NCBI GenBank assembly: GCA_015228925.1
Contig: JADGCQ010000010.1
Span: forward strand, 1,128 to 65,127
Source: Magnetococcales bacterium
Lineage (GTDB): Bacteria > Pseudomonadota > Magnetococcia > Magnetococcales > UBA8363
Direction: 5' to 3'
DNA length: 64,000 nt
A program made the position numbers and the translations under genes. Under the pieces are notes generated by a model, which saw nothing but the letters and a program-made list of their open reading frames with translations, searched no databases and was not told where the DNA came from. Shown here one piece after another: positions 48,644-64,000 of this stretch (the stretch's first letter is position 1; every line of letters begins with the position of its first letter).

Positions 48644-51600
48644 TTGTCCGAGACACCACAAGCATCTTCCATTCTGCTGTCCCATCTGCATGGGCTGAGC
48701 GATCCCCACAGAAAAATTTTGCAATTGGTTGCCATTGCTTTTGATGTCATTCCGGCATCCTTGGTGGTGGCTTGTCTGAAAAAACTGAAAATCAAGCAGT
48801 CCAATGCCGGTTGGTTTAGTGTCAGAACCTTGCAGCCCTATATTGAGTCTTTGATTGCCATGGGTTTGCTCAAACGGGATTTGGATACGGGATTTCATTT
48901 TCGGATTGTCCCGACCATTGCCGATGCTGCGGTGCTAGAGGCGGTGGCGGATGGGGTGTTTGCCGATTTGATGCGGGTCATCGAAGGGGAATTGCCGTCG
49001 GTGCTGCATTCTGGCGGCGTGGGCGGGATGCCGCGTTTGTTGAGTTTTGATCGGGCTGTGCGGGAGATTCGTCTGGGGTTGCTGACGGGGGATGAGGAGC
49101 GGGTATTTCGTTTTCTGGGGTATGCCGCCAGCCAACGTTCTGAAGAGTATCGCAGGAATCCCCCGTTGGTTCGGTTGTGTGCCGAGCCGTGGGATCTGGA
49201 GCGGATGGCGGCGTTGCCATTGGGGATTCAGGTCAAGGCTTTGGAGGAGATGCTCACCTTGGCGTTGTTGAATCTGGACCCGGTGGATGGTTTTGGAAAA
49301 CTCCTGGAGATGCACCGTCATCAACCCTGCGCCAAAAACGGACCCGAATTGCGTGCCTTGTACATGATTGTCCTGTTGATTCAGGGGCGGTTGCAAGAGG
49401 CAGTGGATTTACTGGCGAATCACAAAACCAGACCTGTGGGGGCCGAGATTGTTTTCAAGGGGTGGATCGATTTTTTGAAGGGGAAAAATCGGCAGGCGAT
49501 TGCGACCCTCGATAAGATGGTATTGCTCCTTGACGATTTCCGGCTGATGAGCAAACACAATCCATTTCCTTATTATTGGGGCGGTTTATTTTTGTTGCTG
49601 GGGTTGTTGAAACAGGGGAAGGGGGAAGCCCGTCAGCATGTGTTGAATATTGTGCAACGGATGGAACGCAATCCCAACAATCCTCTGACTTCGGCCTGTC
49701 AGGCGATGCGGGCGGTGGCTTTGGCGCGGGGAGGAGATTCCGATCATGCTCTGTTGATCTTGGGTTATCGGGCCGAAACGGCCAAAGAGGGGCTTCCATG
49801 GCTCCGTTCCGAGATGGTGACCCCGCTCATGCCGGTTCGGGAAGGGGGGTGGAATCCGGCGTTGCCCAAAGCGGTGTTTTCGTGGCGTGCGGATGGCTTG
49901 CCCGAATTGTTTCGCATGATGGCTTTGTATTGGATCGATCATGAGGTGGCGGCGGTGGCGGCGGTTGTGGCGCATGTCACGGCGATTCACAAACGGGCCT
50001 TGGCGCATGATTATCCGTGGGTGGCGATGGAGACGGCGGCCTTGTTGGGGCGGTTGACGGAGCGGGATGATTGTCGTGAGACCCAGGAGGGCTTGGAAAA
50101 ACGGTTGGGTTTTTCCTGCGTGACGGCGCAGATTCAGCGTGAGGAACGATGGGAACAAACGTTGTCGGCCCTGATGAACCTGTTGGGGCGGGGGACAGAC
50201 GATTCGAGCGGCGATTCTTTTTTGAGTGGCAACCGGCGGTTGGTTTGGCTCATCGAAACCCATGGTCATCGTGGCAGCATCCAGGCACGGGAACAGACCC
50301 TTTCCGACACGGGGGAATGGAGTCGGGGCAAGGCGTTGTCGGCGCGGCGGCTCCATGGTGCCGAGATCCACAATTGGGGGTATCTCACCCCCCAGGACAT
50401 CAAGATATGCGCGGCGATCCGTCAGGAGTACATCTATAACGGCACCCGCTATGATTTTGATTGGGCGGGGGCGATGTTGGCCATGGTCGGGCATCCCCAG
50501 GTGTATTGGCTGGACAATCCCACGACGACCATCGAGGTGATTCGCGGGGAGCCGGAATTATTGGTGAATGAACACAATGGCCGGGTCCGTATCCGCTTTG
50601 CCCACAAGATTGAGGGGCCGGGGGTGCTGGTGTTGCGGGAGGGGGAGCGTCGTTGTCGGGTGATCGAAATCACCGGCGAACACCACAAGATCGCCGACAT
50701 CCTGGGACCGGAGGGGTTCAACGGTCCCGAAACCCAGAAGGGACGGGTTATGGGGGTGGTGGCGCGATTGGCCAACCTGGTGACGATTCAATCCACGGTG
50801 GATGTTGAAGCCGATGGGGAAGAGTTGGCGGAGGTGGAGGTTGATTCGCGTCCTCGGTTGCAGTTAGTCCCCAATGGTGCTGGATTATCGGCGCGTCTGT
50901 TGGTTCGTCCTTTGGGCACATCGGGTCCATGGTCCAGGCCGGGCAAGGGGAGTGTGGTGATGTTTGCCGAACGGGATGGCCAACGGGTGAAGGTCCGCCG
51001 CGATTTTCAACAGGAAAAACGGTTGGTGGAGGAGCTGGTGGGGCTATGTCCCGCGTTGGCGGGTCGTTCGGTGGACGATTGGTCGTGGACGTTGGGCAAG
51101 GTGGAGGACTGTCTGGAACTGTTGGCGGAGCTTCAGGAGGCGGGGGACAAGGTTGTGGTCGAATGGCCGGAGGGGGAGCGGTTTCGGCTGGCCAACAAGG
51201 TGACCATGGATCGTTTGCAATTAAAAATTCGCCGGGAGCGGGATTGGTTTGCGGTGTCGGGGACGGTGACGCTGGACGATGCCTTGGTGTTGGAGATGGG
51301 GCAGTTATTGAAAATCACCAAGGCAGGCGGGCGGTTTATCCCTTTGGGCAATGGCCAGTTTGCCGCCTTGACCGAAGCATTTCGCAAGCGGTTGGCCGAA
51401 ATGTTGGACATGGGGGAGGAGGGTTCCAAGGGGTGGAAGGTCCATGCGTTGACCTCACCATGGCTCAAGGAGATGGCGGGGGAGAGTGGCCGGGTTGTTG
51501 GGGACAAACATTGGAAGGAGCAGGTAGCGCGCCTGGATGCGATGGAATCGGGGGATGCGGCGGTCCCTTCGACTTTTCAGGCGGAACTGAGGGAGTATCA

Positions 51601-52972
51601 GATCAAGGGATTTCAATGGTTGCATCGATTGTCGGTTTGGGGGGTGGGAGGATGTTTGGCGGATGACATGGGGTTGGGCAAGACGTTGCAGGCGATGGCG
51701 TTATTGCTGCATCGCGCCCCGGATGGTGCTGGATTGGTGGTGGCCCCGACATCGGTATGTACCAATTGGGAGGCGGAAATCAAACGGTTTGCCCCCACCC
51801 TCAATCCGGTGATTTTGGGGGGGCCGAACCGTGCGGAACGGGTTTCGGGGTTGAAGGCGTTTGATGTTTTGATCGTGAGTTATGCCTTGCTCCAGATTGA
51901 AGAGGAACTGTTGGGGACGGTGATTTGGAACACCATTGTGTTGGATGAGGCGCAGGCGATTAAAAATCGGATGACCAAACGGTCTCGCGCCGCCATGGCG
52001 TTGCAGGGTCATTTTCGCTTGATGACCACGGGTACCCCCATCGAGAATCATCTGGGGGAATTATGGAATTTATTCCGTTTTTTAAATCCTGGTCTGTTGG
52101 GGTCGTTGGAGCGGTTTAACGAACGGTTTGCCATCCCCATTGAACGCTTTCGGGATCGGGAGGCGTCCCAGCGGTTGAAGACGCTGATTCGTCCTTTCAT
52201 TCTACGGCGGACGAAAAATCAGGTACTTCAGGAATTGCCGCCGTTGACGGAGATTGTGTTGCATGTGGAGATGGGACCGGAGGAGTCCGCCTTTTATGAA
52301 TCGTTGCGGCAGCGGGCCATGGCCGCTTTGGAGGGGGCGGATGATGCGGGAGATGGGCAGAATCATCTGGCGATTTTGGCGGAGTTAATGACTTTACGCC
52401 GTGCGTGTTGCAACAGTCGTCTGGTACAATCGAGTTTAGTATTGCCCAGTGCCAAGCTGGAGACATTCAAGGATGTGGCGCGGACGCTGTTGGACAATCG
52501 GCACAAGGCGTTGGTATTCAGTCAATTTGTCGGTCATTTGACCATTATTCGGGAATTCTTGGTGGCCGAGGGGATTTCATTTCAATATTTGGATGGCTCG
52601 ACCCCGGTGGCCAAGCGCAAGGAGAGTATCGACGCCTTTCAGAGCGGGGTGGGGGATTTCTTTTTGATCAGCCTCAAGGCGGGTGGGGTGGGGTTGAACC
52701 TGACGGCGGCGGATTATGTGATCCATATGGATCCCTGGTGGAATCCGGCGGTCGAGGATCAAGCCTCCAATCGGGCGCATCGGTTTGGCCAGAGGCGTCC
52801 GGTGACGGTATATCGGCTGGTGACCCGTGGGACCATCGAGGAGAAGATTGTTGAACTTCACGCGCAAAAACGCGATTTGGCCGATGATCTTTTGGAAGGG
52901 GGGGATATGAGTGGTCGTTTGAGTGCCGCCGAATTGTTGGGGCTGATCCGTATGCCGATGAACGGCGCATGA
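48644..52972 (+). CDS. SNF2-family ATPase/helicase with a ~950-aa uncharacterised N-terminal region
   Basis: 1442 aa, TTG start preceded by AAGGATGAAGGGG. C-terminal SNF2 motifs LREYQIKGFQWL, LADDMGLGKTLQA, LDEAQAIKN, LMTGTPIENHL, ALVFSQF, LISLKAGGVGLNLTAA, WWNPAVEDQASNRAHRFGQ. Confidence 0.88.
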   Translation: MSETPQASSILLSHLHGLSDPHRKILQLVAIAFDVIPASLVVACLKKLKIKQSNAGWFSVRTLQPYIESLIAMGLLKRDLDTGFHFRIVPTIADAAVLEAVADGVFADLMRVIEGELPSVLHSGGVGGMPRLLSFDRAVREIRLGLLTGDEERVFRFLGYAASQRSEEYRRNPPLVRLCAEPWDLERMAALPLGIQVKALEEMLTLALLNLDPVDGFGKLLEMHRHQPCAKNGPELRALYMIVLLIQGRLQEAVDLLANHKTRPVGAEIVFKGWIDFLKGKNRQAIATLDKMVLLLDDFRLMSKHNPFPYYWGGLFLLLGLLKQGKGEARQHVLNIVQRMERNPNNPLTSACQAMRAVALARGGDSDHALLILGYRAETAKEGLPWLRSEMVTPLMPVREGGWNPALPKAVFSWRADGLPELFRMMALYWIDHEVAAVAAVVAHVTAIHKRALAHDYPWVAMETAALLGRLTERDDCRETQEGLEKRLGFSCVTAQIQREERWEQTLSALMNLLGRGTDDSSGDSFLSGNRRLVWLIETHGHRGSIQAREQTLSDTGEWSRGKALSARRLHGAEIHNWGYLTPQDIKICAAIRQEYIYNGTRYDFDWAGAMLAMVGHPQVYWLDNPTTTIEVIRGEPELLVNEHNGRVRIRFAHKIEGPGVLVLREGERRCRVIEITGEHHKIADILGPEGFNGPETQKGRVMGVVARLANLVTIQSTVDVEADGEELAEVEVDSRPRLQLVPNGAGLSARLLVRPLGTSGPWSRPGKGSVVMFAERDGQRVKVRRDFQQEKRLVEELVGLCPALAGRSVDDWSWTLGKVEDCLELLAELQEAGDKVVVEWPEGERFRLANKVTMDRLQLKIRRERDWFAVSGTVTLDDALVLEMGQLLKITKAGGRFIPLGNGQFAALTEAFRKRLAEMLDMGEEGSKGWKVHALTSPWLKEMAGESGRVVGDKHWKEQVARLDAMESGDAAVPSTFQAELREYQIKGFQWLHRLSVWGVGGCLADDMGLGKTLQAMALLLHRAPDGAGLVVAPTSVCTNWEAEIKRFAPTLNPVILGGPNRAERVSGLKAFDVLIVSYALLQIEEELLGTVIWNTIVLDEAQAIKNRMTKRSRAAMALQGHFRLMTTGTPIENHLGELWNLFRFLNPGLLGSLERFNERFAIPIERFRDREASQRLKTLIRPFILRRTKNQVLQELPPLTEIVLHVEMGPEESAFYESLRQRAMAALEGADDAGDGQNHLAILAELMTLRRACCNSRLVQSSLVLPSAKLETFKDVARTLLDNRHKALVFSQFVGHLTIIREFLVAEGISFQYLDGSTPVAKRKESIDAFQSGVGDFFLISLKAGGVGLNLTAADYVIHMDPWWNPAVEDQASNRAHRFGQRRPVTVYRLVTRGTIEEKIVELHAQKRDLADDLLEGGDMSGRLSAAELLGLIRMPMNGA

Positions 52973-53004
52973 AATATTGATGAAAAAGAACAACCGGGGG
53001 GATT

Positions 53005-56000
53005 ATGGCTTATACATGGTTGCACCTTTCCGACATTCACATGGGATGCCGTGGAGAAGAAATCCGCAGACAGGTGGATGCGGAGTTTAAACCCCACCTT
53101 CAGAAGATGGTGAAACGGCTGGGGGCACCGGACATGATCCTGCTGACCGGGGATCTGGCCTTTAGTGGCAAGGAGGAGGAATACAAGCAGCTTGATGCGT
53201 TTTTGGCGGCACTGACAGGATGGATCAGGGAGATCCAGCCCGATGCCCCCCCGCCGATTTGGGTACCGGTGCCGGGCAACCATGATCTGGCTAGGCCCGA
53301 TAGAAATGATTTGGTCCTGGACTTTGCCAACTTGAAACAAGTAGCGGATGGGGATGAGTCTGTACGCCACGGTTTGGGCCAACGTTTTTTCTCGAAAAAA
53401 AATGTCCAGCTTATCGCCCCGCTGTTCCAGGCGTACCAGGATTGGTTTGCCCATAAGGTGAAACCGGGTTGGGAGGGCAGGGACTTTCATCTTTCCCATT
53501 TCCCCGGTGACTGGTGCCTGGAGTTGAACCTGCCGGACCGTTTTCCTTTGCGTCTGGTCGGTTTAAATTCTGCCTGGATGCATTTGGGAGACGGCTTTGC
53601 CCATCAAAAACTGGGGCTTTTCACCCAACAATTACAGGCAGCTTTGGGAGAGAATAAAAACCTGGAATTTGCCCAGGGACCAGCACTGTTATTGCTGCAC
53701 CATCCCCCCTTGACATGGTTTTCATCCAAAGCACTCACGCGGTTCAAGGAAGAAATATATACCCCAAAACGTTTTCACGCCTGCCTGTTTGGCCACATGC
53801 ATGATGAAAACACGACCGTGATCTTTGAGGCGGGCGGACCGCCACGCTATTATCTTCAAGCCCCCTCCCTGTTTGGTGTGGAAAAACTGGGTACTTCCCA
53901 AGAGGAACGTCGGTTTGGTTATGGTTGGGGTCGGGTGACGCAGGAGGGGGAAATTTTCACTTGGCCTTTTCTGCGGGGCAAACATGGCGGGGAGCAGCAA
54001 TTTATTTGGAACTCCAACTTTTCCGGCAATGTGGAAACCGGCCATCCGTTCCGAACCAAGATGCAAGCGGTCGCTACCGTGCCGACTGTCGATCTTAAAC
54101 CCTGGCTCCGTTCCCTTCACGACCGCACCAGACATATCAAGATCAGCGGCATCGGCTCCGGCGGTGGGAGTGGCAAGAATGCCAACCTTTATCCCATCGA
54201 GCAGCTTTACACGGTTCTGAAAAGTCGTGATGTTGTAGAGGGTGGTGATCCTCTTCGTGCCGAAGAGGTCAATCTGGCCGACCTGTTGCCCAGGTACCAG
54301 CGGTTGTTCATCGAGGGGCAGCCGGGGGCGGGCAAGACGACGTTTCTGTATCTGGCCGCCGCCATGTTGGCCAAGGATCTGTTGGGAGAGGCTGGCCCGC
54401 AAGGGGAATCCTGGCGTAAACGATATTTGGGGATGGATGACCGCCAGGAAGCACCGACCCCTCTTTTTCTAAAATTATCGGAGTTGGCGGCATGGCTGGC
54501 TGATCCTAAAACACCCCAAAAAGCGGACGACCGTTTTCGCTTGTTGGATTTCCTCCAGACCACAGCCGATGCCGGGAAAGAAGACGCTTGGCGGGAGCAT
54601 TGGCAATGGTTGTTGGATGCGGGACACGCCATTCTCCTCCTGGATGGTCTGGACGAGGTGGCGGACGAAAGGGTGCGCGAACGGGTATTCGCCATTTTTC
54701 AGAATGCGGCGACCCATTGGCAAAAAATCGCCATCATCGTCAGCAGCCGTCCCTTCGGTGCGGAGAGGCTCACCGCAATGGGTTTTCACCGAACGGTGAT
54801 CGAACCGTTTGGCGCAGTTCAGGTCCGGGAGTTCATCAACCGTTGGTCGGCGGCCCTGTATGGCCATGCCATTGGCGAGCAGCCCACCGGCGAAGCGGGT
54901 AAACATACCGAAACTTTGGAAAAGGCGATTCTTGACAAGCCCACCATCCGCAAGTTGGCCTCCAATCCCGTCATGTTGACCTGCCTGTGCGTGGTTCATT
55001 GGAACGAAGGGCAATTGCCGGAAGGGCGGACGCGGGTTTATAAGGCGGTAATCCGTTGGTTGCTGGGGAGTCGGGAAGAGCAACGAACCAAAGCGGGATG
55101 CACCAACCGTTTTGCCCTGGAGGCTTTTTCCGCCATTGCCTTGACCATGATGGGAAACAGCAAGGGTGATAAGAAGGCCATCTTCGATTTGGAAGAGGCA
55201 GCCGTCGCCGTCGAGTCGCTCCATGCACGCCATTTCCCGAAAGTCACGATGGACCGGCTGATTTTGGTTCGGGAATGGGTCCGTTTTGAGTGTTTGTATA
55301 GTGGCATTCTGGAGGAGACGAGCCGAAACCGTCTCCGTTTCTGGCATTTAACCTTCCAGGAATATTTGGCGGCGCAAAACTTGGCTTGGATGAGCGATGA
55401 CAAGGACAATGGCTGGTGGTCGGTTGTCAAAAACCGGCTGGAAAACGCCCAGTGGCGGGAGACGGTAGATTTGTTTCCGGGGGCATTGTTTGATGAGGGG
55501 GGCGGACGCCGGGTGGATGAGTTACTGACGCGGGTGCTGAAAAAATATCCCGGTAATGATTTGGCGCAGGATGCCCGCAAGGCCGGTATTTTGGGGCGGA
55601 TCCTGGAGCCGATGAGGGTGTATGAATATCAGCCCAAGCCGGAAATTCAAGCTCAGTACCGGGAGGTGCTGGACCGGGCTATGGACATCTTCGAGCCGAA
55701 GGGGGCGGCCAGAGTCCCTATTGCCGTGCGCCTTCCGGCGGCGGAGGCGTTGGGCCAGGGGGGAGATCCCCGTTTTACCGGGGATCGCTGGCGGGAAGAC
55801 CTGATCAAAGTCCCCGGCACAGCCATCGCCTTGGGAAAATATCCGGTGACGGTGCAGGAATACCAACGGTTTGTCGAGGATGGCGGTTATGACAATCCCG
55901 ATTATTGGCAGGAAGATCGCGCCTGGACTTTCCGCCAAGCTGAGAAATGGCAGGAACCGGATGAGTGGGCCAATCAGTTGGACCATCCCAACCGTCCGGT

Positions 56001-56469
56001 AGTGGGGGTCTGCTGGTATGAAGCGGCGGCTTATTGCGTGTGGCTCGGCAGGAATAAAGGTGTCAAGTTTTTCTTGCCCGAGGAGAAGGATTGGGAAACA
56101 GCCGCTACCCCTGCCCAAGGGGAATATCCCTGGGGTAAGCCGGGCCCGACCCCGGAGTTAGCCAACTATGGTGATGGCCAGATTGGCGCACCGACGCCGG
56201 TGGGTCTCTATCCCGTCGGCAATGGTCCCTACGGTCATTGTGATCTGGCGGGCAACGTTTGGGAATGGTGTGCTAGCCCGGGGGAGGGTGATGATGTGTC
56301 TGACGAGGAGATTCAAAAGTACGGACTACCGAAGGTGCTTAAGGGCGGGTCCTGGTACTACGCGGCTGGCGACCTCCGCGCTGCTGGGCGTAACGGGAGC
56401 CGTGCCGATTACCGCCTCGTCGGTCTGGGCTTTCGCGTCGCCGCCCCCGCCAGCATGATTGATCCTTGA
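53005..56469 (+). CDS. DGR target 1: metallophosphoesterase-NACHT/STAND NTPase-FGE-sulfatase (C-type-lectin fold) protein with C-terminal VR
   Basis: 1154 aa; no signal peptide seen. Calcineurin-like motifs LHLSDIHMG, LLTGDLAFSG, VPGNHD, LLLHHPP, LFGHMH. Walker A IEGQPGAGKTTFL (nt ~54316-54342), Walker B ILLLDGLDEV. C-terminal FGE fold PVVGVCWYEAAAYCVWLG, LAGNVWEWC, KGGSW...LGFRVAAP. The last 42 codons carry VR1. Confidence 0.85.
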   Translation: MAYTWLHLSDIHMGCRGEEIRRQVDAEFKPHLQKMVKRLGAPDMILLTGDLAFSGKEEEYKQLDAFLAALTGWIREIQPDAPPPIWVPVPGNHDLARPDRNDLVLDFANLKQVADGDESVRHGLGQRFFSKKNVQLIAPLFQAYQDWFAHKVKPGWEGRDFHLSHFPGDWCLELNLPDRFPLRLVGLNSAWMHLGDGFAHQKLGLFTQQLQAALGENKNLEFAQGPALLLLHHPPLTWFSSKALTRFKEEIYTPKRFHACLFGHMHDENTTVIFEAGGPPRYYLQAPSLFGVEKLGTSQEERRFGYGWGRVTQEGEIFTWPFLRGKHGGEQQFIWNSNFSGNVETGHPFRTKMQAVATVPTVDLKPWLRSLHDRTRHIKISGIGSGGGSGKNANLYPIEQLYTVLKSRDVVEGGDPLRAEEVNLADLLPRYQRLFIEGQPGAGKTTFLYLAAAMLAKDLLGEAGPQGESWRKRYLGMDDRQEAPTPLFLKLSELAAWLADPKTPQKADDRFRLLDFLQTTADAGKEDAWREHWQWLLDAGHAILLLDGLDEVADERVRERVFAIFQNAATHWQKIAIIVSSRPFGAERLTAMGFHRTVIEPFGAVQVREFINRWSAALYGHAIGEQPTGEAGKHTETLEKAILDKPTIRKLASNPVMLTCLCVVHWNEGQLPEGRTRVYKAVIRWLLGSREEQRTKAGCTNRFALEAFSAIALTMMGNSKGDKKAIFDLEEAAVAVESLHARHFPKVTMDRLILVREWVRFECLYSGILEETSRNRLRFWHLTFQEYLAAQNLAWMSDDKDNGWWSVVKNRLENAQWRETVDLFPGALFDEGGGRRVDELLTRVLKKYPGNDLAQDARKAGILGRILEPMRVYEYQPKPEIQAQYREVLDRAMDIFEPKGAARVPIAVRLPAAEALGQGGDPRFTGDRWREDLIKVPGTAIALGKYPVTVQEYQRFVEDGGYDNPDYWQEDRAWTFRQAEKWQEPDEWANQLDHPNRPVVGVCWYEAAAYCVWLGRNKGVKFFLPEEKDWETAATPAQGEYPWGKPGPTPELANYGDGQIGAPTPVGLYPVGNGPYGHCDLAGNVWEWCASPGEGDDVSDEEIQKYGLPKVLKGGSWYYAAGDLRAAGRNGSRADYRLVGLGFRVAAPASMIDP
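56343..56452 (+). repeat. DGR variable repeat VR1
   Basis: Gap-free match to TR 57794-57903 with 14 mismatches, all at TR adenines (hand alignment). Lies in the last 42 codons of the 53005-56469 CDS. Confidence 0.9.
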
Positions 56470-56498
56470 TTTTTTTGATTTTTGTCCTTTGTGGGGGT

Positions 56499-56519
56499 CC
56501 AGGGGGCGCAGCCCCCTGG
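56499..56519 (+). promoter_or_regulatory. GC hairpin 29 nt downstream of the VR1-gene stop (candidate DGR target-recognition hairpin/cruciform)
   Basis: CCAGGGGGC-gca-GCCCCCTGG: 9-bp perfect stem, 3-nt loop. The same element at the same spacing follows VR2. Confidence 0.7.
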
Positions 56520-56540
56520 TTTTGCAAAATGGCCTATTTT

Positions 56541-56652
56541 TGTCATTTTAGGGCTGTTTTTGTCATTTTGATTGACAGAATAGCGATATTTTATTAGATT
56601 TTGTCATTCTGGTGTCATTTTGACGATCATCGTGTCACTTTGAAAGTGACAC
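56541..56652. promoter_or_regulatory. array of TGTCA/TGACA half-sites and palindromes upstream of the DGR accessory genes
   Basis: TGTCA at 56541, 56602. TGTCA-N7-TGACA at 56561-56577. GTCA-TTT-TGAC at 56614-56624. 21-bp perfect palindrome GTGTCACTTT-G-AAAGTGACAC at 56632-56652, ending 1 nt before the annotated ATG. Confidence 0.6.
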
Positions 56653-56653
56653 A

Positions 56654-57346
56654 ATGACAAAGAACACGAGGGATTGTCATGTGAATCTGTCTCTGACCGA
56701 AGCGGCCATCGTCCTGGGGAAGACCCCTCGGCAGGTGCGCTATCTCATCAAGAACGGGACGCTGAAGGCGAAGAAGGAAAAGGGGTGCTGGGTCATCGAC
56801 AACGCCGATCTTCCCCTTTCCGCCGCCCAGCGTCAGGCGGTGGCCCGACGTGCCGAGACCGCACAGAATGCCATGGCCGAAGCCACCGAACCGCTGCGAA
56901 AAGCGGCATCCCCGGCCCCTTCCCCCGCAGAAACGAAAACCGCAGACGGCGAAAAAGAGAAAAAAGTCTATTCCGTCACCGATCTGAAGGCTTTTACCCT
57001 GGGAGCGGACATTTGCCGGGCGTTGGAAACGCATCTGGGCCGGGAGGATTCCGCCAGGCTTTGCCTTTTTGAAGCCCTGAAGAAGCTCTGCCGGGGGTGT
57101 CACGCCTTTCAACCGCCCCAAAAGGAGGCTCGTTTTACCGAGGCACGGGAGGCGGCAGCGGATGCGGTCGCCATCTTGCTCCTGGAAGGCGATGCCGATG
57201 ATCCCCAGCGCACCACCCTGGCCCGCCGCATTGAGACCGAACTGATCCCCAAGCTGGCGGCGTTGGCCGCTGGTCAGGAAAAACGGGCGCGCAAAAAACA
57301 GCAGGGGAGCCTCAGCGGCTTTTTCCCCGGCATGCTTGGGGAGTGA
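56654..57346 (+). CDS. helix-turn-helix (excisionase/MerR-like HTH) protein, DGR-associated
   Basis: 230 aa. N-terminal LSLTEAAIVLGKTPRQVRYLIKNGTLKAKKEKGCWVI resembles an HTH_17-type motif. Stop overlaps the avd start (GTGATG). An alternative GTG start at 56681 has GAGGGA upstream. A long antisense ORF is considered a GC shadow. Confidence 0.6.
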   Translation: MTKNTRDCHVNLSLTEAAIVLGKTPRQVRYLIKNGTLKAKKEKGCWVIDNADLPLSAAQRQAVARRAETAQNAMAEATEPLRKAASPAPSPAETKTADGEKEKKVYSVTDLKAFTLGADICRALETHLGREDSARLCLFEALKKLCRGCHAFQPPQKEARFTEAREAAADAVAILLLEGDADDPQRTTLARRIETELIPKLAALAAGQEKRARKKQQGSLSGFFPGMLGE

Positions 57347-57687
57347 TGCGACCCGCCCCCCTGTATGGCGACACCATGCGCCTCGCCGCCCTGATTCTTC
57401 GGTTGACCGAAACACCGACGTTCAGGCAGTCACCATTGGGGCGGCGCTTGCAGGATGGTGCGTTGCGTCTTGTGGATCATGTGGTGTTGGCGTTGGCCGG
57501 CCAGGACCGGCAACACCGCATCGCTGCCGCCGATGCCGAACTGCAAACCTTGCGTGCCCATTGTTTTCTCGCGCTTCAAATGGCCTTGATGGAGGAAGAT
57601 TCTTTTTTGATACTGGCCGAAGCGGCCCAAAAGGTGGGTCGGCAATTGGGTGGATGGATCAAAAAAGGGCGGGCTAAATCCGCTTGA
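57343..57687 (+). CDS. avd: DGR accessory variability determinant (Avd, four-helix-bundle family)
   Basis: 113-114 aa, basic and helical. C-terminus AEAAQKVGRQLGGWIKKGRAK resembles Bordetella phage bAvd AEVGRILGSWIARVNRKGQ. Located immediately upstream of TR and RT. Start is GTG 57343 or ATG 57346. Confidence 0.8.
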   Translation: MMRPAPLYGDTMRLAALILRLTETPTFRQSPLGRRLQDGALRLVDHVVLALAGQDRQHRIAAADAELQTLRAHCFLALQMALMEEDSFLILAEAAQKVGRQLGGWIKKGRAKSA

Positions 57688-57793
57688 CGCCGCAGAAAAC
57701 TTGCCTCCCAGGGGAGGGGCCGCTATTCTGAACTGGGGACGCTTCGAAACAAGAATTCCGCTATGGCTATGGACATCACCATGAACCCACAAG

Positions 57794-57903
57794 GGGCGGG
57801 TCCTGGAACAACGCGGCTGACAACCTCCGCGCTGCTAGGCGTAACAGGAACCATGCCGATAACCGCAACGACAATCTGGGCTTTCGCGTCGCCGCCCCCG
57901 CCA
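57794..57903 (+). repeat. DGR template repeat (TR)
   Basis: Non-coding copy of VR1/VR2 between avd and RT. 23 adenines in 110 nt; seven AAC codons when read in the VR frame (RGGSWNNAADNLRAARRNRNHADNRNDNLGFRVAAP). Confidence 0.9.
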
Positions 57904-57970
57904 ACACGCCGGACACATCCGCCGTGCAGAAGTGGCCCCGGTGCTTGCATTGTGCGCCGAAACATCCCAT

Positions 57971-58020
57971 GCCCGCCCGTTCTCGTAGGCAGCAGACGCC
58001 GAGCGTCCGGGCGGGCTTTT
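57971..58020 (+). other. GC-rich stem-loop plus T-tract in the TR-RT spacer
   Basis: GCCCGCCCG (57971-57979) pairs with CGGGCGGGC (58008-58016). Inner GACGC/GCGTC pair (57995-57999 / 58003-58007). Followed by TTTT (58017-58020), 15 nt before the RT ATG. Confidence 0.55.
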
Positions 58021-58034
58021 TCGCCTTTGTGACC

Positions 58035-59027
58035 ATGCGTCGCTTTGGCAATCTGTTTGTGGAGGTCGCCTCGACGAACAATCTTTGGCGGGCCTGGCAG
58101 GACTTTTCCAAAGGAAAACGCCAGCGCATCACGGTGGCTGATTTTGTATGGCAAGCACCCCAGGAAGTTGTGTCTCTGCACCAGCAATTGATGGCGGAGA
58201 ACTATCGCCCCCAGGGCTATCGTCTGAAAATGATTCATGAACCCAAACACCGCCTGGTGGCGGCAGCTCCGGTGTGTGACCGAATCGTCCATCATGCCAT
58301 CTATCGAATTCTCTCACCGCTTTTGGATCCAGGGTTGATCCGGGAGACCTGGGCCTGTCTGCAAGGGCGCGGCAGCCATCGGGCGCAAATCGCCTGTGTG
58401 GGGGCCATGCGGAATTATCCCTGGCGGATGGCCCTGGATATACGCCATTACTTTCCCAGTATTGATCACGCCATTCTTCTGGAGGAGGTCATGGCGCGGC
58501 GTATCAAGGACCGGCGTCTGCTCGAACTGCTCAGGAAAATCTGTCGCAGTGGTGCTGGACTCTATCGGCATCCGGGGATTGGGGAATTTTTGGATTTTCC
58601 CCCTGGTTTTCCCCCGGATGGATGTGGTCTGCCCATTGGCAATCTGACCAGTCAGTGGCAGGCCAATCACTATCTTTCGGGATTGGATCACCATGCCAAA
58701 CGGGTTCTTGGGGTTCCCGCCTACCATCGGTACATGGATGACATGGTTTTTTTCGCCCATTCCAAAAGCCAGTTGCAGGAGACCCGTGACGCCGTGGCCC
58801 AATGGCTTTGGGTGTATCGGCGTCTGAAATTGAAACATCCCAACGCCGCCATCCGTTCCACCAAGCAACCCATGACCTGGCTGGGCAAACGCATTTCCAC
58901 CGCCGGTATCAACCCAAGTCGGCGGCAGATTCGCAAAATGCAGTGTCGGATGACAACCCTGGTCCGTCAGGGGGATGAGGAGACCATCCGCCATGCCGTT
59001 GCCTCCTATCGCGGAGTGCTGTTGTAA
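58035..59027 (+). CDS. DGR reverse transcriptase
   Basis: 330 aa from MRRFGNLFVEVASTNNLWRAWQDFSKGKRQR. RT motifs include LPIGNLTSQWQANHYL (the I/LGxxxSQ signature of DGR RTs) and catalytic YHRYMDDMVFF. Start set at ATG 58035, downstream of TR; the track ORF begins at 57924, 21 nt downstream of TR. Confidence 0.88.
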   Translation: MRRFGNLFVEVASTNNLWRAWQDFSKGKRQRITVADFVWQAPQEVVSLHQQLMAENYRPQGYRLKMIHEPKHRLVAAAPVCDRIVHHAIYRILSPLLDPGLIRETWACLQGRGSHRAQIACVGAMRNYPWRMALDIRHYFPSIDHAILLEEVMARRIKDRRLLELLRKICRSGAGLYRHPGIGEFLDFPPGFPPDGCGLPIGNLTSQWQANHYLSGLDHHAKRVLGVPAYHRYMDDMVFFAHSKSQLQETRDAVAQWLWVYRRLKLKHPNAAIRSTKQPMTWLGKRISTAGINPSRRQIRKMQCRMTTLVRQGDEETIRHAVASYRGVLL

Positions 59028-59035
59028 GGGAAGAT

Positions 59036-59155
59036 TGACAAAGTGTCATTTATAAGGTGACGTTTTGTCAGTTTGTCACTTTTCAAATGACACTTTGTCC
59101 ATTTGAATGGACAAAATTGGATGTAAAACGACCTGATTGTCACTTTAAATGACAA
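59036..59155. promoter_or_regulatory. second array of TGTCA/TGACA palindromes downstream of the RT gene
   Basis: TGACA-AAG-TGTCA 59036-59048. TGAC-N5-GTCA 59058-59070. TGTCA-N9-TGACA 59074-59092. TTGTCCAT-TTGA-ATGGACAA 59095-59114. TTGTCA-N7-TGACAA 59137-59155. Confidence 0.6.
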
Positions 59156-59185
59156 AAAACGGCTATTTTTGGTCATTTTGCAAAG

Positions 59186-59206
59186 CCAGGGGGCTACGCC
59201 CCCTGG
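59186..59206 (-). promoter_or_regulatory. GC hairpin 29 nt downstream of the VR2-gene stop
   Basis: On the coding (minus) strand: CCAGGGGGC-gta-GCCCCCTGG. Mirror image of the 56499-56519 element. Confidence 0.7.
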
Positions 59207-59235
59207 ACCCCCACAAAGGACAAAAACCAAAAAAA

Positions 59236-62200
59236 TCAAGGATCAACCATGCTGGCGGGGGCGGCGACGCGAAAGCCCAGAAAGACGTAGCGGTTATCGG
59301 CATGGCTCCAGTTACGCCCAGCAGCGCGGAGGCTGTCAGCCGCGAAGCCCCAGGACCCGCCCCTGATAGGATGAACATCTCGATCACCTTTGGTGATAAC
59401 GGGATCCTGGGTTGGCACCGCGCCAGTGCGTTTTTTATAAGCCTTCTCATCCCAAATATCTCGGCACCATTCCCAGACGTTGCCGGCCAGATCGAGATGG
59501 CCGAAAGGACCACGGCCAGCGGGATATTGTCCCACCAGTTCCGGCTTCCCTTTTTGCCCGTCCAAGCCAAAACAGGCCAACTCCTTCGTTGGTTTTTTAT
59601 CGCCGTCCCAGGGATAAACGCGACCATCGCTTCCCCGTGCGGCATATTCCCATTGCGCCTCGCTGGGTAGAAGAATGGGACTCCCGGACTCTTTGCTGAG
59701 CCATGCGCAAAAGGCCATGGCATCGTTCCAATCCACACCTACTACCGGCTGCTCTGGATCCGAGAATCTTTGGTCGCGCCAATACTCAGGTTCTTTGTGT
59801 TTTACCGCTTTGAGAAAAAGTCCATACTGTTGGTTGGTCACTGGTGTTTCCGCCAATAGGAACGGCGAGAGTTTCACCCGATGCTCCGGTTTTTCATAAC
59901 TGTTTCCTTTGTTGTCTCCCATGGTGAAAATGCCACCGGGTACCGGCAACAGCCGTAGCCCCGGCAAAGGCTCCAGAATTTTCGTTGCCGTGATCTCTCG
60001 GCCATGAACGGCGTTGACCAGGGCTTTTGCCCCCGCTGCCAGGGAGGAACGGGCATCGACCATTACGGTCCCCAGTGGTGCGGGGAGCTTGGGTGCCGCC
60101 GGGCTATCCGGCGTGAACACTGTGATCAGGCGGCAGTCGCTGGCCAGATAGTGCAACCCCTCTTCACATTCGGCGTCGGTAAACAGACGGTCTTCAGCAC
60201 CGAGCAGAAAGGCAACGGCCCCGACCTTGGCCCGAATCGGATCCAGGTATTGCAGCCATTCGTTGGAGACCCATTCCCGCGCCGTTTTCGGCCAGACATG
60301 CACCCCCGCATCGGCCAGGAGAGGGGCCAATTGTTCGGCGAAGGTCTCCCTATCGGCATCATGGATCAGTAGCAGGTCATAGTCTTTGCCACCCGCTTCG
60401 CCCAACAGCCCCTGTGCCAGCCTGGAGACGTTTTCATCTGTATGTTGTTTCAGCCCCTCCGCAGCCGCTAGAACGGCGGTATCGGTCACCCCCTTGAGTA
60501 GCCGCAGAATCGCCGTCAGGTGTCCCACCGACGTTTTTTTATCCTGTAGTGCCTTGGCAAAAACAGAATAATCGGTCTGTTCCGCCTCGGTCAGCATATC
60601 CCGCATCAGATTGGCGCGGTCTCCCTTGAGAATATCCGGCAACAGCCGCGTCATGAACGGCGCGAATAGTTGATGGTCTGGGATCCCCACCAATAACAAC
60701 AACACCTCGCGCCACCATTTTTCATCCCCCTGACTTGCCAGAAAGTCCAAGAGCGTTTCGTCCGACGACGCCATCACCACATGCCGCGCCGCCAGATATT
60801 CCTGCAACCCCAGATGCATGAAGCCATACTGATTGGGTGCATATTCGATGAAAACGCCCGTATCGCGGTGGAGCCACTCCAAAATTTGGAGTCCCGTGGG
60901 TCTGTTTTTTTGACTGGGCAAGCATTTTTCAGCAAAATTGGCAAATTCCAGCCGTTTGACATTATCGCGGCGGTTTTCCTGGTGAAGTTTCCAGGCCAGG
61001 GGGCGCAGGATGTCCAGGGCTGTTTTTACATCCAGGAGTGGTTCACCCCCAGTTTGCTCCCGACGCCATTTGCCCAATAGGATTTCCAGGCATCGTTGAT
61101 AAAACGCCGCCCGTTTTTTGGGAATTTCTCCCACCCGGAGTACCACTACACACAACAGGGTGAGCAACAGTGGGTTGCCCATCAACACCTTGATGCGTTG
61201 GTCGGAAAAATTATTCTCATCCATGGCTTTGAGGAGGCGCAGGGAACGGGCTTTGGCTTCATTAGCCAAGTCGGGTACGAGATATTGGCCAGCCTCATCG
61301 AACCAAACTTTGACGAATTCCTCGACCTGTTCACCATCCAGGGGTTTGACATCCAGGGGAAAGAAATTTTCCAGCCGCACCCCATCCCCATATCCGGTAA
61401 AACGACAAGAGACGGCGGCGTAGATCTGCTGGTTTTGTAAACCGACCAGACCATCGTTGATTCGTTTTGCCACTTTGGCCCGCAGGTTGGAGTCGGCGAT
61501 TTCATCCAAGCCGTCGAAGAGGAGCAACAGCTTGCCATCTTTCCAATAATCCCGGCCTAGTTCTTTTGGGAAACGCCCGGCGGAAAGATCTCCTAATTCT
61601 TTGTCGATGAAGGATTGGAGGGGTATATGCAGATATTCTTCGCTAAAATGGCGCAGACGCAAAAAGACCGGCATCAACCCTTCCGGTAACCCCAAAGAGT
61701 GCGACCCTTGGATGAGGCAATGGTGCAGCATTTTTTTAAGCGAGGTCGTTTTGCCCGCACCCGGTTCACCAAACAACACCACGCACTGCCGCAAGCCGCC
61801 GTCCGCATTTTTGAAAGCCTCTTCCAGTTTGACATCACCAGCACTTTGCTGCCACGCCTCCTCGGCTATGCGCCCCCGACGCTCTTTCAGATCAACCCCA
61901 AAGGCGCGTTGCGAGATGCGCAACGGCACATAGACTTCATTTAAATCTAGGGAAATATCACCACCATCCACCCCCAACAACGACAACCGGCCAAATTTCT
62001 CCAGTGCCCAGGTGGAATAGCCATCTTTCCCGGTGTTTGCAATCTTTTCCTCCACGGGTGGAGGCTGCTTGGCCAGTTCTCGGATACGTTGGGACAGTTC
62101 CAGAAATTTTCTTTTCCTTTCTACAGGTTGCAATTCCTCCAATGTTTTGCCTGGTGTTCCGAATCCTTGAAACTCGGTCAGTTTTATCTGGGAAGTGGTG

Positions 62201-62574
62201 CCACTGTCTGGGTGAATAAAAGAAATCTCGCCGACGGATGATGGTGATAAAAACACGGGAAGGATCGTGAGTCGTCCCTGTTCACTCGCGGAAAGAATAG
62301 GAGGAAGTTCATATGTTTTAATAAAATGAGAGGCTAGAAAAATTTCCGAGATAAACAAAATGGCTGTTTGTGTTTGGCGCAGTGCTTCCTCTATCTCTTT
62401 GCGCCATTTGTCTCCTGCTTTGATGTCTTGATCTACCCAAACTCGGGCAACTCCGTCAGCCTCCAAAGTTTGTTTGAAAGGGAGAAACTCTCGCAGCACT
62501 TCTTCATCCGCGTGACTATAGCTGATAAAAACTTTTGATCTTTGCACGACTTTCATCCATTCAATTTGGGTCAC
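59236..62574 (-). CDS. DGR target 2: TIR-NACHT/STAND NTPase-FGE-sulfatase (C-type-lectin fold) protein with C-terminal VR
   Basis: 1112 aa; no signal peptide seen. N-terminal TIR-like KVFISYSHADEEVLREFLPF...VWVDQDIKAGDKWRKEIEEAL...AILFISEIFLAS. Walker A LFGEPGAGKTTSL (nt ~61744-61773), Walker B LLLLFDGLDEI. C-terminal FGE fold PVVGVDWNDAMAFCAWLS, LAGNVWEWC, RGGSW...LGFRVAAP. Start is GTG 62574 or ATG 62556. Confidence 0.85.
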   Translation of the reverse strand: MTQIEWMKVVQRSKVFISYSHADEEVLREFLPFKQTLEADGVARVWVDQDIKAGDKWRKEIEEALRQTQTAILFISEIFLASHFIKTYELPPILSASEQGRLTILPVFLSPSSVGEISFIHPDSGTTSQIKLTEFQGFGTPGKTLEELQPVERKRKFLELSQRIRELAKQPPPVEEKIANTGKDGYSTWALEKFGRLSLLGVDGGDISLDLNEVYVPLRISQRAFGVDLKERRGRIAEEAWQQSAGDVKLEEAFKNADGGLRQCVVLFGEPGAGKTTSLKKMLHHCLIQGSHSLGLPEGLMPVFLRLRHFSEEYLHIPLQSFIDKELGDLSAGRFPKELGRDYWKDGKLLLLFDGLDEIADSNLRAKVAKRINDGLVGLQNQQIYAAVSCRFTGYGDGVRLENFFPLDVKPLDGEQVEEFVKVWFDEAGQYLVPDLANEAKARSLRLLKAMDENNFSDQRIKVLMGNPLLLTLLCVVVLRVGEIPKKRAAFYQRCLEILLGKWRREQTGGEPLLDVKTALDILRPLAWKLHQENRRDNVKRLEFANFAEKCLPSQKNRPTGLQILEWLHRDTGVFIEYAPNQYGFMHLGLQEYLAARHVVMASSDETLLDFLASQGDEKWWREVLLLLVGIPDHQLFAPFMTRLLPDILKGDRANLMRDMLTEAEQTDYSVFAKALQDKKTSVGHLTAILRLLKGVTDTAVLAAAEGLKQHTDENVSRLAQGLLGEAGGKDYDLLLIHDADRETFAEQLAPLLADAGVHVWPKTAREWVSNEWLQYLDPIRAKVGAVAFLLGAEDRLFTDAECEEGLHYLASDCRLITVFTPDSPAAPKLPAPLGTVMVDARSSLAAGAKALVNAVHGREITATKILEPLPGLRLLPVPGGIFTMGDNKGNSYEKPEHRVKLSPFLLAETPVTNQQYGLFLKAVKHKEPEYWRDQRFSDPEQPVVGVDWNDAMAFCAWLSKESGSPILLPSEAQWEYAARGSDGRVYPWDGDKKPTKELACFGLDGQKGKPELVGQYPAGRGPFGHLDLAGNVWEWCRDIWDEKAYKKRTGAVPTQDPVITKGDRDVHPIRGGSWGFAADSLRAAGRNWSHADNRYVFLGFRVAAPASMVDP
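59253..59362 (-). repeat. DGR variable repeat VR2
   Basis: The reverse complement matches TR 57794-57903 without gaps. 12 mismatches, all at TR adenines. Lies in the last 42 codons of the 59236-62574 CDS. Confidence 0.9.
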
Positions 62575-62638
62575 GGGACTGGTTTGACATCAGCGCGAAG
62601 TAAAAAAATGATCGCGTTACAATACCCCAAACACCAAA

Positions 62639-62668
62639 CAGGCACTTAAGCTTGCGCCTAAGTGCCTG
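62639..62668 (-). terminator. hairpin terminator downstream of tRNA-Lys
   Basis: CAGGCACTTA-N10-TAAGTGCCTG (10-bp stem) with T-rich sequence on both sides. Starts 6 nt after the tRNA 3' end on the minus strand. Confidence 0.6.
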
Positions 62669-62673
62669 TTTTT

Positions 62674-62749
62674 TGGTGAGCCGTGTTGGAGTCGAACCAA
62701 CGACCCACAGATTAAAAGTCTGTTGCTCTACCGACTGAGCTAACGGCCC
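62674..62749 (-). tRNA. tRNA-Lys (anticodon UUU)
   Basis: The reverse complement reads GGGCCGTTAGCTCAGTCGGTAGAGCAACAGACTTTTAATCTGTGGGTCGTTGGTTCGACTCCAACACGGCTCACCA. 7-bp acceptor stem, D-loop AGCTCAGTCGGTAGAGC, anticodon loop CTTTTAA, T-arm GTTGG-TTCGACT-CCAAC, encoded CCA. Confidence 0.92.
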
Positions 62750-62914
62750 CCACAATCCAAAGATGCGGCATCCTAAAACATGTTCCGGTGCTTGGCAACC
62801 CCTATATCCCTTTCCGTAGACAATATTCGGTCATTTTTCATTTGAGCAAGGTCGCCATGGAACTTTTTCCGTATCAATCGGAAAATTTTAACCCGTGGCA
62901 CTCCCCCAGATTGA

Positions 62915-63982
62915 TTACACAGCCCCACGGGCCTGCACCAAAGATTCTAAAGAGGTTCCCGCAAGCATGGCAATGTCAAACAGGCTGTGTCGGGCAAAAA
63001 GATCATAGGCCGCAGTCTCGTCGGAAAAAATGTGCGTCTTGACCATGGGGTTGCCGGAAGCGAATACCATGGTGTCTCCCTGCCATCCAACATGCGCCGT
63101 CGCTCGGTAAACATAGGTGACATTGCCGGTCAATTGCGCCGTGATCGACGTATGGCTAACCTGCGGATGAACCCAGGCCAAACCGCCAGCCGTATGAACC
63201 TCAATATCATGGTCGTTGGTCACATGGCCATTCAATACCTGAGCAATCGCCGAGGCGGTCATCCCCGTACCACATGAAAGCGTCAGTCCAACCCCGCGCT
63301 CATGGGTCTGCACCAAAATTTTGTTGGAATCCAATACCTCAACAAAACTGATGTTGGCACGGTTGGCAAACATCGGGTGATGCTCCAACGCCGGACCAAG
63401 ACGGTTCCAATCAACATCCCGCAACCTTTTGACCGTGATGATCATGTGCGGGTTGCCGATGGACAAAATAGTCCCCACCAGCATTTCCCCGGCGACCTCA
63501 AAGGACTGCGAAATAAAGGGGGTCGTGGAACCATTCGCCAAAACGCGGCCCGGGTTGGTTTCCACACGCCCCATATGGATGCGAACAAACGGTAACCGAT
63601 ATGGCTCGGAAATAAAATTATGCGTCTCATACTGTCCCCCCTTGGTCTCGAAAATCAGGGGGGATCGCCCAGCATAATACCCGTCGTAGGCTACACGCGA
63701 TGCGCAACGCAACCCGTTGCCGCTCATTTCCGCTTCGCTGCCGTCGGGATTGAAAAATTGCATCCGTGGATGGGATGCGTCATGGATGGAAACAAAAATA
63801 ACCCCATCCGAACCAATGCCCCCACCCCGAAGACCCGCCAAACGGGCAAAGGCCGGTTTGACAGACTCCGGTACCTGCTGCGAACCGGTCTCATCAACCA
63901 CGATAAAATCGTTGCCAGCTCCATGACATTTGATAAAATCCACCCCAAAAGGCTCCAACATGGTACCTCCCAATAAGTTCAA
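62915..63982 (-). CDS. dapF: diaminopimelate epimerase-like protein (DapF family, atypical)
   Basis: 355 aa. KCHGAGNDFIVVDE, FFNPDGSEAEMSGNGLRC (Ser where DapF has catalytic Cys73), SIGNPHMII, HERGVGLTLSCGTGMTASA (second catalytic Cys present). ~70-aa C-terminal extension relative to E. coli DapF. Confidence 0.7.
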   Translation of the reverse strand: MNLLGGTMLEPFGVDFIKCHGAGNDFIVVDETGSQQVPESVKPAFARLAGLRGGGIGSDGVIFVSIHDASHPRMQFFNPDGSEAEMSGNGLRCASRVAYDGYYAGRSPLIFETKGGQYETHNFISEPYRLPFVRIHMGRVETNPGRVLANGSTTPFISQSFEVAGEMLVGTILSIGNPHMIITVKRLRDVDWNRLGPALEHHPMFANRANISFVEVLDSNKILVQTHERGVGLTLSCGTGMTASAIAQVLNGHVTNDHDIEVHTAGGLAWVHPQVSHTSITAQLTGNVTYVYRATAHVGWQGDTMVFASGNPMVKTHIFSDETAAYDLFARHSLFDIAMLAGTSLESLVQARGAV

Positions 63983-64000
63983 AACAACCCACCTACCGAA

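Follow-up and report, generated by a model that had tools for sequence, protein, structure and literature searches.

A very probably complete chromosomal diversity-generating retroelement with two convergent, predicted NLR-like target genes and a candidate DNA-binding accessory gene in a Magnetococcales genome

A stretch of 64,000 nucleotides from the Magnetococcales contig JADGCQ010000010.1 (assembly GCA_015228925.1, positions 1,128 to 65,127; hereafter the window, numbered from its first letter) contains, at 53005-62574, what is very probably a complete chromosomal diversity-generating retroelement (DGR) of the 'effector-STAND-lectin' type (STAND, signal transduction ATPases with numerous domains). 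The cassette runs in the order target 1, 221-aa accessory gene, avd, template repeat (TR), reverse transcriptase (RT) gene and target 2, and each of the two convergent targets ends in a variable repeat (VR) (Table 1). The best PDB match of the RT is 8ub7, a 328-aa reverse transcriptase (E 2e-29) which, from its length, is presumably the Bordetella phage enzyme; a group II intron RT is matched with E 1.5e-16. The window RT is 100% identical to an NCBI protein of a Magnetococcales metagenome-assembled genome (MAG). The avd orthologues in related loci carry precomputed PF22296 matches, and size, isoelectric point (pI) and position are as for Avd.

Table 1. Features of the retroelement and its immediate surroundings (window coordinates)
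Feature	Position	Strand	Description
Target 1	53005-56469	+	1154 aa; Metallophos-NACHT/NPHP3_N-FGE-sulfatase/C-type-lectin fold with VR1; translation intact
VR1	56343-56452	+	TR homology runs to 56455; target 1 stop codon 56467-56469
Hairpin 1 (candidate recognition hairpin)	56499-56519	+	CCAGGGGGC-GCA-GCCCCCTGG; 9-bp GC stem, 3-nt loop; forms in DNA fold
Left array	56541-56679	.	9 TGTCA/TGACA motifs vs 0.46 expected (P 2e-9)
Sigma-70-like promoter	56572-56600	+	TTGACA-17-TAGATT, within left array, facing the cassette operon (promoter scan)
Accessory gene	56681-57346	+	221 aa; GTG start 56681, GAGGG 8 nt upstream; pI 9.2
avd	57346-57687	+	113 aa; pI 10.1; bAvd PF22296 and NF033474 DivGenRetAVD matches
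TR	57794-57903	+	110 nt, 23 A; TR-VR homology 57792-57906
Structured spacer of DGR RNA	57905-58016	+	Between TR and RT; covariation, 19 loci
RT	58035-59027	+	330 aa; IGNLTSQ and YMDD; RVT_1 4e-11
Right array	59036-59154	.	7 TGTCA/TGACA motifs vs 0.44 expected (P 4e-7); mirrors left array
Hairpin 2 (candidate recognition hairpin)	59186-59206	-	Minus strand CCAGGGGGC-GTA-GCCCCCTGG; mirror image of hairpin 1
VR2	59253-59362	-	12 mismatches to TR, each at a TR adenine
Target 2	59236-62574	-	1112 aa; TIR-NACHT-FGE-sulfatase/C-type-lectin fold with VR2

The three repeats are related by a strictly base-specific pattern of differences. In gap-free alignments, VR1 departs from the TR at 14 positions and the reverse complement of VR2 at 12, and every mismatch falls on a TR adenine (14/14 and 12/12; 26/26 pooled), the hypergeometric chance of which is 4e-12 for VR1 and 4e-10 for VR2. 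The non-A positions of the TR are unchanged in each VR (87/87, or 174/174 comparisons overall), and VR1 and VR2 differ from each other at TR-A positions alone. No fourth copy of the repeat was found in the 64-kb window by searching with both conserved repeat ends. A preliminary description of this DNA, made from hand alignments, had given 14 and 12 gap-free mismatches distributed over 17 TR positions, no altered TR C, G or T, 12 variable codons, VRs at the 3' ends of convergent genes, and an RT with IGNLTSQ and YMDD motifs. The computed alignment returned the same counts, the union of mismatches being precisely those 17 positions, every one an A, and the 87 non-A positions identical in both VRs; re-translation gave the same VR peptides and variable codons, the open reading frame (ORF) coordinates agreed, and both RT motifs were seen in the translation.

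The TR-VR homology proved slightly longer than first described and extends to 57906, C57907 being the first non-A mismatch, at which the homology ends. Towards this end, a GC-rich block (CTGGGCTTTCGCGTCGCCGCCCCCGCC) is the same in the TR and both VRs, and just beyond it A57904 of the TR reads G in the VRs (TR CCAACA, VR CCAGCA; repeat 3' ends TR ...GCCAACACG and VR ...GCCAGCA(C/T)G). Because this G is found in both VRs and also in the relatives, it is best read as a fixed difference between the TR end and the VR end, and not as a product of mutagenesis. In the reading frame of the VRs, the TR adenines occupy codon position 1 or 2 only, mostly in AAC codons, with none at position 3, and a stop codon is unreachable by any substitution of a TR adenine. 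Twelve codons vary in at least one VR and 14 are potentially variable, corresponding to ~10^12.7 peptides per VR. The VRs form the extreme 3' ends of the two target ORFs, with 17 nt from the VR end to the stop.

By their domain content, the two targets are predicted to be intracellular STAND sensors resembling nucleotide-binding leucine-rich repeat (NLR) proteins. Target 1 matches the Pfam families FGE-sulfatase (2.8e-37), Metallophos (3.9e-10) and NPHP3_N (4.9e-6; 27.3 bits, cut-off 24.8), with Walker A (GQPGAGKTT) and Walker B (LLLDGLDE) motifs and the phosphoesterase motifs DxH, GD and GNHD present. Target 2 matches FGE-sulfatase (2.5e-52), TIR_2 (8.5e-20) and NACHT (1.6e-6; 28.5 bits, cut-off 26.7), with Walker A (GEPGAGKTT) and Walker B (LLFDGLDE) motifs. 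The FGE-sulfatase matches of both targets reach the C-termini, and the lectin-fold domain of target 2 matches the Treponema DGR variable protein TvpA (2y3c, 3e-12). In PADLOC, TIR effector models match target 2 and there are partial matches to the DS8/DS9 anti-phage phosphoesterase models, no model covering either target over its full length but only the effector parts. Most likely, the targets would act in hypervariable recognition of invaders, coupled via NACHT oligomerisation to a TIR or phosphoesterase effector. The identification of the targets as NLR-like STAND proteins with TIR and metallophosphatase effectors is an addition to the preliminary description, as are the helix-turn-helix (HTH) gene and the TGTCA arrays discussed below. 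Residues 1 to ~350 of target 1 (53005-54060), comprising the metallophosphatase, are absent from the orthologues in the related loci L001, L003 and L004, in which the alignments begin at residues ~354-363, and the combination of Metallophos, NACHT and C-type lectin (CLec) domains is present in the distant locus L005. Effector domains appear to have been swapped onto a conserved NACHT-CLec chassis.

After each VR there follow the stop codon, a T-rich stretch, and then the hairpin, which starts 44 nt past the end of the homology. The 94 nt downstream of the VRs, outside the TR homology, are 87% identical between the two targets, compared with 56% for the coding sequence upstream. The position of the hairpin is kept in relatives across phyla, and its stem changes in sequence with pairing retained (for example CCAGGGGT/ACCCCTGG in L005, GACCCCGC/GCGGGGTC in L025 and ATCGCGC/GCGCGAT in L016). 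A DGR hairpin/cruciform was functionally defined by Guo et al. 2011 (PMC3240598), with GC-rich 7-10-bp stems in which structure outweighs sequence, and by analogy the structures following VR1 and VR2 are candidates for the target-recognition hairpin/cruciform of this DGR. Their interpretation as simple intrinsic terminators was considered and rejected, relatives keeping the stem but not the following T-tract. When the 3' flank of VR1 is folded as DNA, the C-run CCCCCGC (56444-56450) in the GC-rich VR end pairs with the G-run GTGGGGG (56491-56497) just before the hairpin. The GGGG-TCC ahead of the hairpin stem is conserved in many relatives, though not in all (it is absent, for example, from L025).

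The TR-RT interval of 128 nt forms a conserved RNA with three helices: P1, in which 57905-57912 pairs with 57919-57926; P2, in which 57971-57979 pairs with 58008-58016 (GCCCGCCCG/CGGGCGGGC), followed by TTTTT and ending 18 nt before the RT start codon; and an inner hairpin, in which 57988-57991 pairs with 57997-58000. In an alignment of 19 loci from Magnetococcales, Planctomycetota, Acidobacteriota, Myxococcota, Gemmatimonadota, Accumulibacter and others, 95.7% of the helix cells are paired, with compensatory changes in 13 of 21 pairs; none of 500 shuffles matched this, and slid partners gave 30-42% pairing. An Rfam scan of 52000-64000 returned one tRNA only, leaving the spacer without a known RNA family. 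We take it to be equivalent to the BPP-1 spacer RNA, on which priming by the RT-Avd complex depends. A structured RNA trailing the TR is mentioned in PMC8867640.

The organization of the locus recurs elsewhere. Four more Magnetococcales loci share its synteny, with RTs 77-85% identical, and 16 of 20 related loci have the same layout, a single TR with a mirrored pair of VRs whose mismatches lie overwhelmingly at TR adenines. Together with the adenine-only differences at two targets, the RT, the Avd-like gene, the lectin-fold VRs, the hairpins and the covarying RNA, this gives high confidence in the complete DGR that had been proposed at the outset. In the proposed mechanism, the accessory HTH gene, avd, the TR with its structured spacer RNA, and the RT gene would be expressed as one operon from the promoter within the left TGTCA array. 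The TR RNA would be converted into cDNA by the RT-Avd complex, with misincorporation opposite template adenines, and this cDNA would replace, in both convergent genes, the terminal ~110 nt of the sequence for the ligand-binding C-type-lectin-fold domain, guided by the GC-rich 3' homology block and the downstream GC hairpin. Each VR would in this way sample ~10^12-10^13 peptide variants over 14 codons with no frameshift or stop.

The prototype for comparison is the Bordetella phage BPP-1 DGR (mtd-avd-TR-brt), which shares with the window element the avd-TR-RT order, the A-specific transfer from TR to VR, the location of the VR at the 3' end of a C-type-lectin-fold domain, and a structured RNA 3' of the TR. 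Common to both are also a GC-rich VR 3' end, a TR/VR difference just past it, and a downstream GC hairpin (PMC3240598). By contrast, BPP-1 is phage-borne and diversifies one target, a tail-fibre protein, whereas the present element is chromosomal and serves two convergent targets that are predicted intracellular STAND NTPases. It also differs from BPP-1 in possessing an extra HTH accessory gene and flanking TGTCA arrays. The chromosomal location is concluded from the DGR neighbours, which are the housekeeping genes hisG, dapF and a carboxylase gene.

Several points weigh against a complete and working DGR. The window avd gives only sub-threshold matches to PF22296 (1.2e-8; 35.8 bits, cut-off 40) and NF033474 (6e-11; 42.6 bits, cut-off 80). 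The hairpins have a 3-nt GNA loop and start 44 nt past the VR homology, compared with the consensus 4-nt GRNA loop and the spacing of 4-34 nt in the published phage set. Searches for a further assembly or for reads of this population found none: an exact look-up of the 330-aa RT gave no match, the public record holding a longer 352-aa call, and scans of metagenome contigs and of genome contigs for the VRs, with every TR-A position set to N, returned 0 matches each. In addition, the related loci L001 and L002, from two different assemblies with one identical RT, are identical over 17 kb including the VRs, which is either uninformative or speaks against fast turnover in a decayed relative. As to function, the immune role of STAND-CLec proteins is without experimental demonstration in any member (PMC10907252).

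Some of these observations would also fit a relic, a DGR that rewrote its VRs in the past but has since fallen silent or become fixed, so that their sequences are merely passed on. The contig scans with the VR pattern returned nothing, the VRs of L001 and L002 are the same, and related loci are found at all stages of decay. In the closest relative, L001/L008 (RT 85% identical), there are 6-9 non-A mismatches per VR and the C-terminus of avd (9130-9507 in L001) is frameshifted beside an insertion resembling a miniature inverted-repeat transposable element (MITE); L003 carries a 2-nt deletion in VR2 and, in addition, a degenerate third VR; and L037 also belongs to this decay series. However, all five genes of the window element are intact with catalytic motifs present, the hairpins, arrays and spacer RNA are intact as well, and non-A differences number 0/174 here, compared with the 6-9 per VR in the decayed, avd-broken relative. 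A relic is thus considered improbable, and since the window VRs have no non-A mismatches, homing here would be recent; on this comparison we infer that the element is active or recently active.

The two target genes are, from their divergence, best regarded as old paralogues: identity is 56% in the 300 nt upstream of the VRs and, between the proteins, 40% over the lectin-fold domains and 27% over NACHT. With flanking sequence so strongly diverged, a recent duplication cannot explain the perfect non-A identity of the repeats, and for a 110-nt block that is perfect at the non-A positions to be shared by both genes and a third, non-coding copy, it must have been copied from the TR repeatedly. The adenine-specific rewriting of both VRs would accordingly postdate the divergence of the two genes, and the proposal that each VR was rewritten separately holds, the VRs differing at TR-A positions only within lectin-fold domains that are just 40% identical as protein. 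A rival account without reverse transcription, in which gene conversion or duplication has kept three ordinary paralogous sequences alike, is effectively refuted by the base-specific mismatch spectrum: the targets are indeed paralogues, and a 207-nt inverted repeat (88% complementary) covers the VRs and their 3' flanks, but gene conversion does not yield differences limited to the adenines of a non-coding third copy (P ~1e-10 to 1e-12) or put all such adenines at codon positions 1 or 2, and leaves aside that an RT, avd and a covarying template-adjacent RNA are located between the repeats and that the same pattern occurs in 16 independent loci.

A chromosomal DGR that targets STAND-CLec proteins is of a kind already described. 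Kaur et al. 2021 (PMC8195603) linked an effector-STAND-FGS architecture to DGRs, with TIR and calcineurin among the effectors, and Doré et al. 2024 (PMC10907252) described loci with DGR RTs of 'clade 5D', such as DGR 3 and DGR 6 of Thiohalocapsa PB-PSB1, and proposed STAND-CLec proteins as hypervariable antigen sensors. The systems of both studies share with the window locus the two targets, the central NACHT/STAND, the single C-terminal DGR-diversified CLec/FGS domain, the N-terminal TIR or calcineurin-like phosphoesterase, and the RT with a four-helical accessory protein. The likeness to the 'clade 5D' loci is one of architecture, and the host here differs in being a Magnetococcales MAG. Among antiviral STAND proteins, Avs and bNACHT resemble the targets in having an N-terminal effector, a NACHT with intact Walker motifs and a C-terminal sensor; their sensors are of the TPR-type repeat kind, whereas the predicted sensors of the targets are DGR-hypermutated lectin folds. 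Cultured Magnetococcales are single cocci. According to Doré et al. (PMC10907252), 82% of the clade-5 RTs from described species belong to multicellular or aggregate-forming bacteria. In the literature that could be searched, no paper linking DGRs to Magnetococcales was found. For this lineage, undiscussed for DGRs in that literature, the locus supplies a clean and intact case of hypermutated NLR-like sensors, which is useful but unsurprising, and one in which two targets with different effector domains are served by one template. Its wider value lies in the compact symmetric cassette, with array, hairpin and VR on each side of the HTH-avd-TR-RT core, and in a candidate DNA-binding accessory protein, candidate binding sites and a covarying spacer RNA that recur in many phyla. 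These conserved extras offer a testable handle on two open DGR questions, namely the regulation of retrohoming and the direction of cDNA to its targets.

The accessory gene overlaps avd, its stop codon being shared with the avd start (TGATG), an arrangement of translational coupling. Its product contains an HTH_17 domain (MerR/excisionase-type winged helix) in the first ~45 residues, as do all members of its family (71/71), and beyond this domain matches no Pfam family. In the AlphaFold (AF2) model (pLDDT 90), the winged helix is followed by a long helix and a disordered linker, which leads to the C-terminal four-helix bundle. The best fold matches of the N-terminal domain are BldC-DNA complexes, with weak E values (0.1-0.6), and its 45 residues superpose on DNA-bound BldC with a TM score of 0.7-0.77 (normalised to the BldC chain) and a root-mean-square deviation of ~1 Å. 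The bundle finds members of the Avd/23S-IVS family (2gsc, 4dwl (bAvd) and 2rld), again with weak E values of 0.1-0.6, and no sequence homology to Avd is detectable (hhalign probability 0.1-0.2%). Because homology is undetectable and the fold resemblance weak, the protein is not claimed to be an Avd paralogue. When PDB sequences were searched with the profile of the accessory protein, no meaningful match came up, PADLOC had no match for the HTH protein, and no homologue was found in the phage collection, the plasmid collection giving one 38-residue HTH match only.

The accessory protein is nonetheless a consistent part of the cassette. It is 69-85% identical among the Magnetococcales loci, a conservation equal to that of the RT; a homologue followed by both avd and a DGR-type RT is found in 22 of 28 genome loci from many phyla; and the family comprises at least 235 clusters at E<=1e-30 in a library of 1.8 billion proteins. 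In the distant locus L038 (5097-5408), only the four-helix-bundle half is present (103 aa; hhalign probability 98.8%), and in L037 (5051-5312) the HTH gene is internally deleted and was missed by the gene caller, the right-hand target being fragmented. Together with the TGTCA arrays described below, the gene suggests a DNA-binding accessory factor that either regulates retrohoming or targets it to the VRs.

DGR accessory proteins have been divided into the classes avd, HRDC, MSL and CH1 by Wu et al. 2018 (PMC5758913). The MSL proteins of that study (112-283 aa) resemble the 221-aa protein in being small, encoded inside the cassette and co-occurring with avd, but are described as MutS-like with a pI of 7.2 +/- 1.7 and no mention of an HTH, compared with a pI of 9.2, an HTH_17 domain and a four-helix bundle here. 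The 221-aa protein is set apart from MSL by this description only and may belong to the same class; neither fold search nor Pfam gave a MutS-like match for it. CH1 proteins (PMC5758913) are acidic and confined to cassettes without avd, whereas the present cassette has avd. The HTH_17 accessory gene and the flanking repeat arrays were not found described in the literature that could be searched, which included Wu 2018, Doré 2024 with supplements, Kaur 2020/2021 and Roux 2021, nor was a mention of them found in the searchable text of PMC8195603 and PMC10907252. In its HTH_17 domain and the superposition of its N-terminal 45 residues, the protein is like the BldC/excisionase-type (MerR-superfamily) proteins. 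Proteins of this type bind short-repeat arrays cooperatively and play an architectural role where recombination takes place. By contrast with them, the accessory protein joins its HTH to a long helix and a four-helix bundle and is encoded inside a DGR operon, and its DNA binding is a prediction.

Candidate sites for such a protein are provided by the two TGTCA/TGACA arrays, both intergenic and each placed between the cassette and a VR hairpin. They include palindromes of the form TGTCAC-N7-GTGACA; the left array contains TGTCATTTTGATTGACA (56561) and TGTCACTTTGAAAGTGACA (56633-56651), and the right array, which mirrors the left through the inverted-repeat pairs I4, I6 and I7, contains palindromes at 59074-59092 and 59138-59154. 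Outside the two arrays, no 200-nt stretch of the window holds more than 3 motifs, and the four TGTCA-N(5-11)-TGACA palindromes of the 64 kb all lie inside them. In an unbiased 5-mer enrichment analysis, TGACA came out top in the Magnetococcales loci (96 observed vs 3.6 expected) and again in 12 loci of other phyla (54 observed vs 1.7 expected; 26 left and 28 right). The possibility that the arrays are a MITE was rejected, their position relative to the cassette being kept across phyla. The cassette would thus appear to encode a DNA-binding factor whose putative sites lie both next to each target and at the promoter of the operon; autoregulation is the safe part of this reading.

It is possible, if doubtful, that the HTH protein represents a widespread and so far undescribed type of DGR accessory factor, which binds the arrays, marks the DNA beside each target, and recruits or positions the RT-Avd-RNA complex or the cDNA. 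Recruitment could proceed through the helical-bundle domain, or, by analogy with excisionase-type architectural proteins, through DNA bending and hairpin extrusion, and at the left array the protein would also autoregulate the operon. If true, this would constitute a protein-based layer of target-site selection in DGR retrohoming. Speaking against it, L038 has a few TGTCA motifs on both flanks and an accessory protein without the HTH domain.

This last locus would equally fit an alternative whose chances fall somewhat short of even, namely that the HTH protein is a mere autoregulator of the operon with no part in retrohoming, or that it is a host factor, for example a response regulator of the PhoB type, which binds the arrays. 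The operon-facing sigma-70-like promoter overlaps the left array, and L015, which has a right VR only, with TGTCGACA motifs beside that hairpin, still has 2-3 motifs (1 TGACA, 2 CGACA) at the operon start (HTH gene) despite the absent left VR. The Pho box contains TGTCA repeats with 11-bp spacing, and in the left array TGTCAT motifs at 56602 and 56613 are spaced by 11 bp. Against this alternative, the right array lies downstream of the RT beside the VR2 hairpin, contains no promoter-like site (promoter scan), and is conserved as strongly as the left in the 12 loci of other phyla, and in L023 only the left VR is present and no array is found right of the RT. In addition, the motifs of host regulators vary between phyla, whereas the TGTCA motif is constant, along with the conserved HTH domain.

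The related loci and the surroundings of the DGR offer some further observations. In L001, a ~40-nt repeat occurs three times (9501-9541, 11131-11171 and 16989-17028), the first adjoining avd, and in L001/L008 an insertion breaks the right array, giving the appearance of a decaying DGR. In L004 (902-10552), the TIR-NACHT-CLec orthologue (61% to the right target of the window) lies on the left and the left-target orthologue (66%) on the right, and the HTH-avd-TR-RT module in the centre has therefore the opposite orientation with respect to the targets, which is consistent with recombination between the mirrored VR/hairpin arms (the 207-nt inverted repeat in the window). The DGR block is found in differing genomic neighbourhoods among related MAGs, which suggests that it moves as a unit. 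Directly upstream of target 1 in the window lies a gene for an SNF2-family helicase (1442 aa, 48644-52972), and from its very strong PADLOC matches to DpdE (1e-184) and ZorD (1e-112), the DGR may sit in a small defence island. On the other side, a tRNA-Lys(UUU) gene (62674-62749, minus strand) is located 100 nt upstream of the target 2 start.

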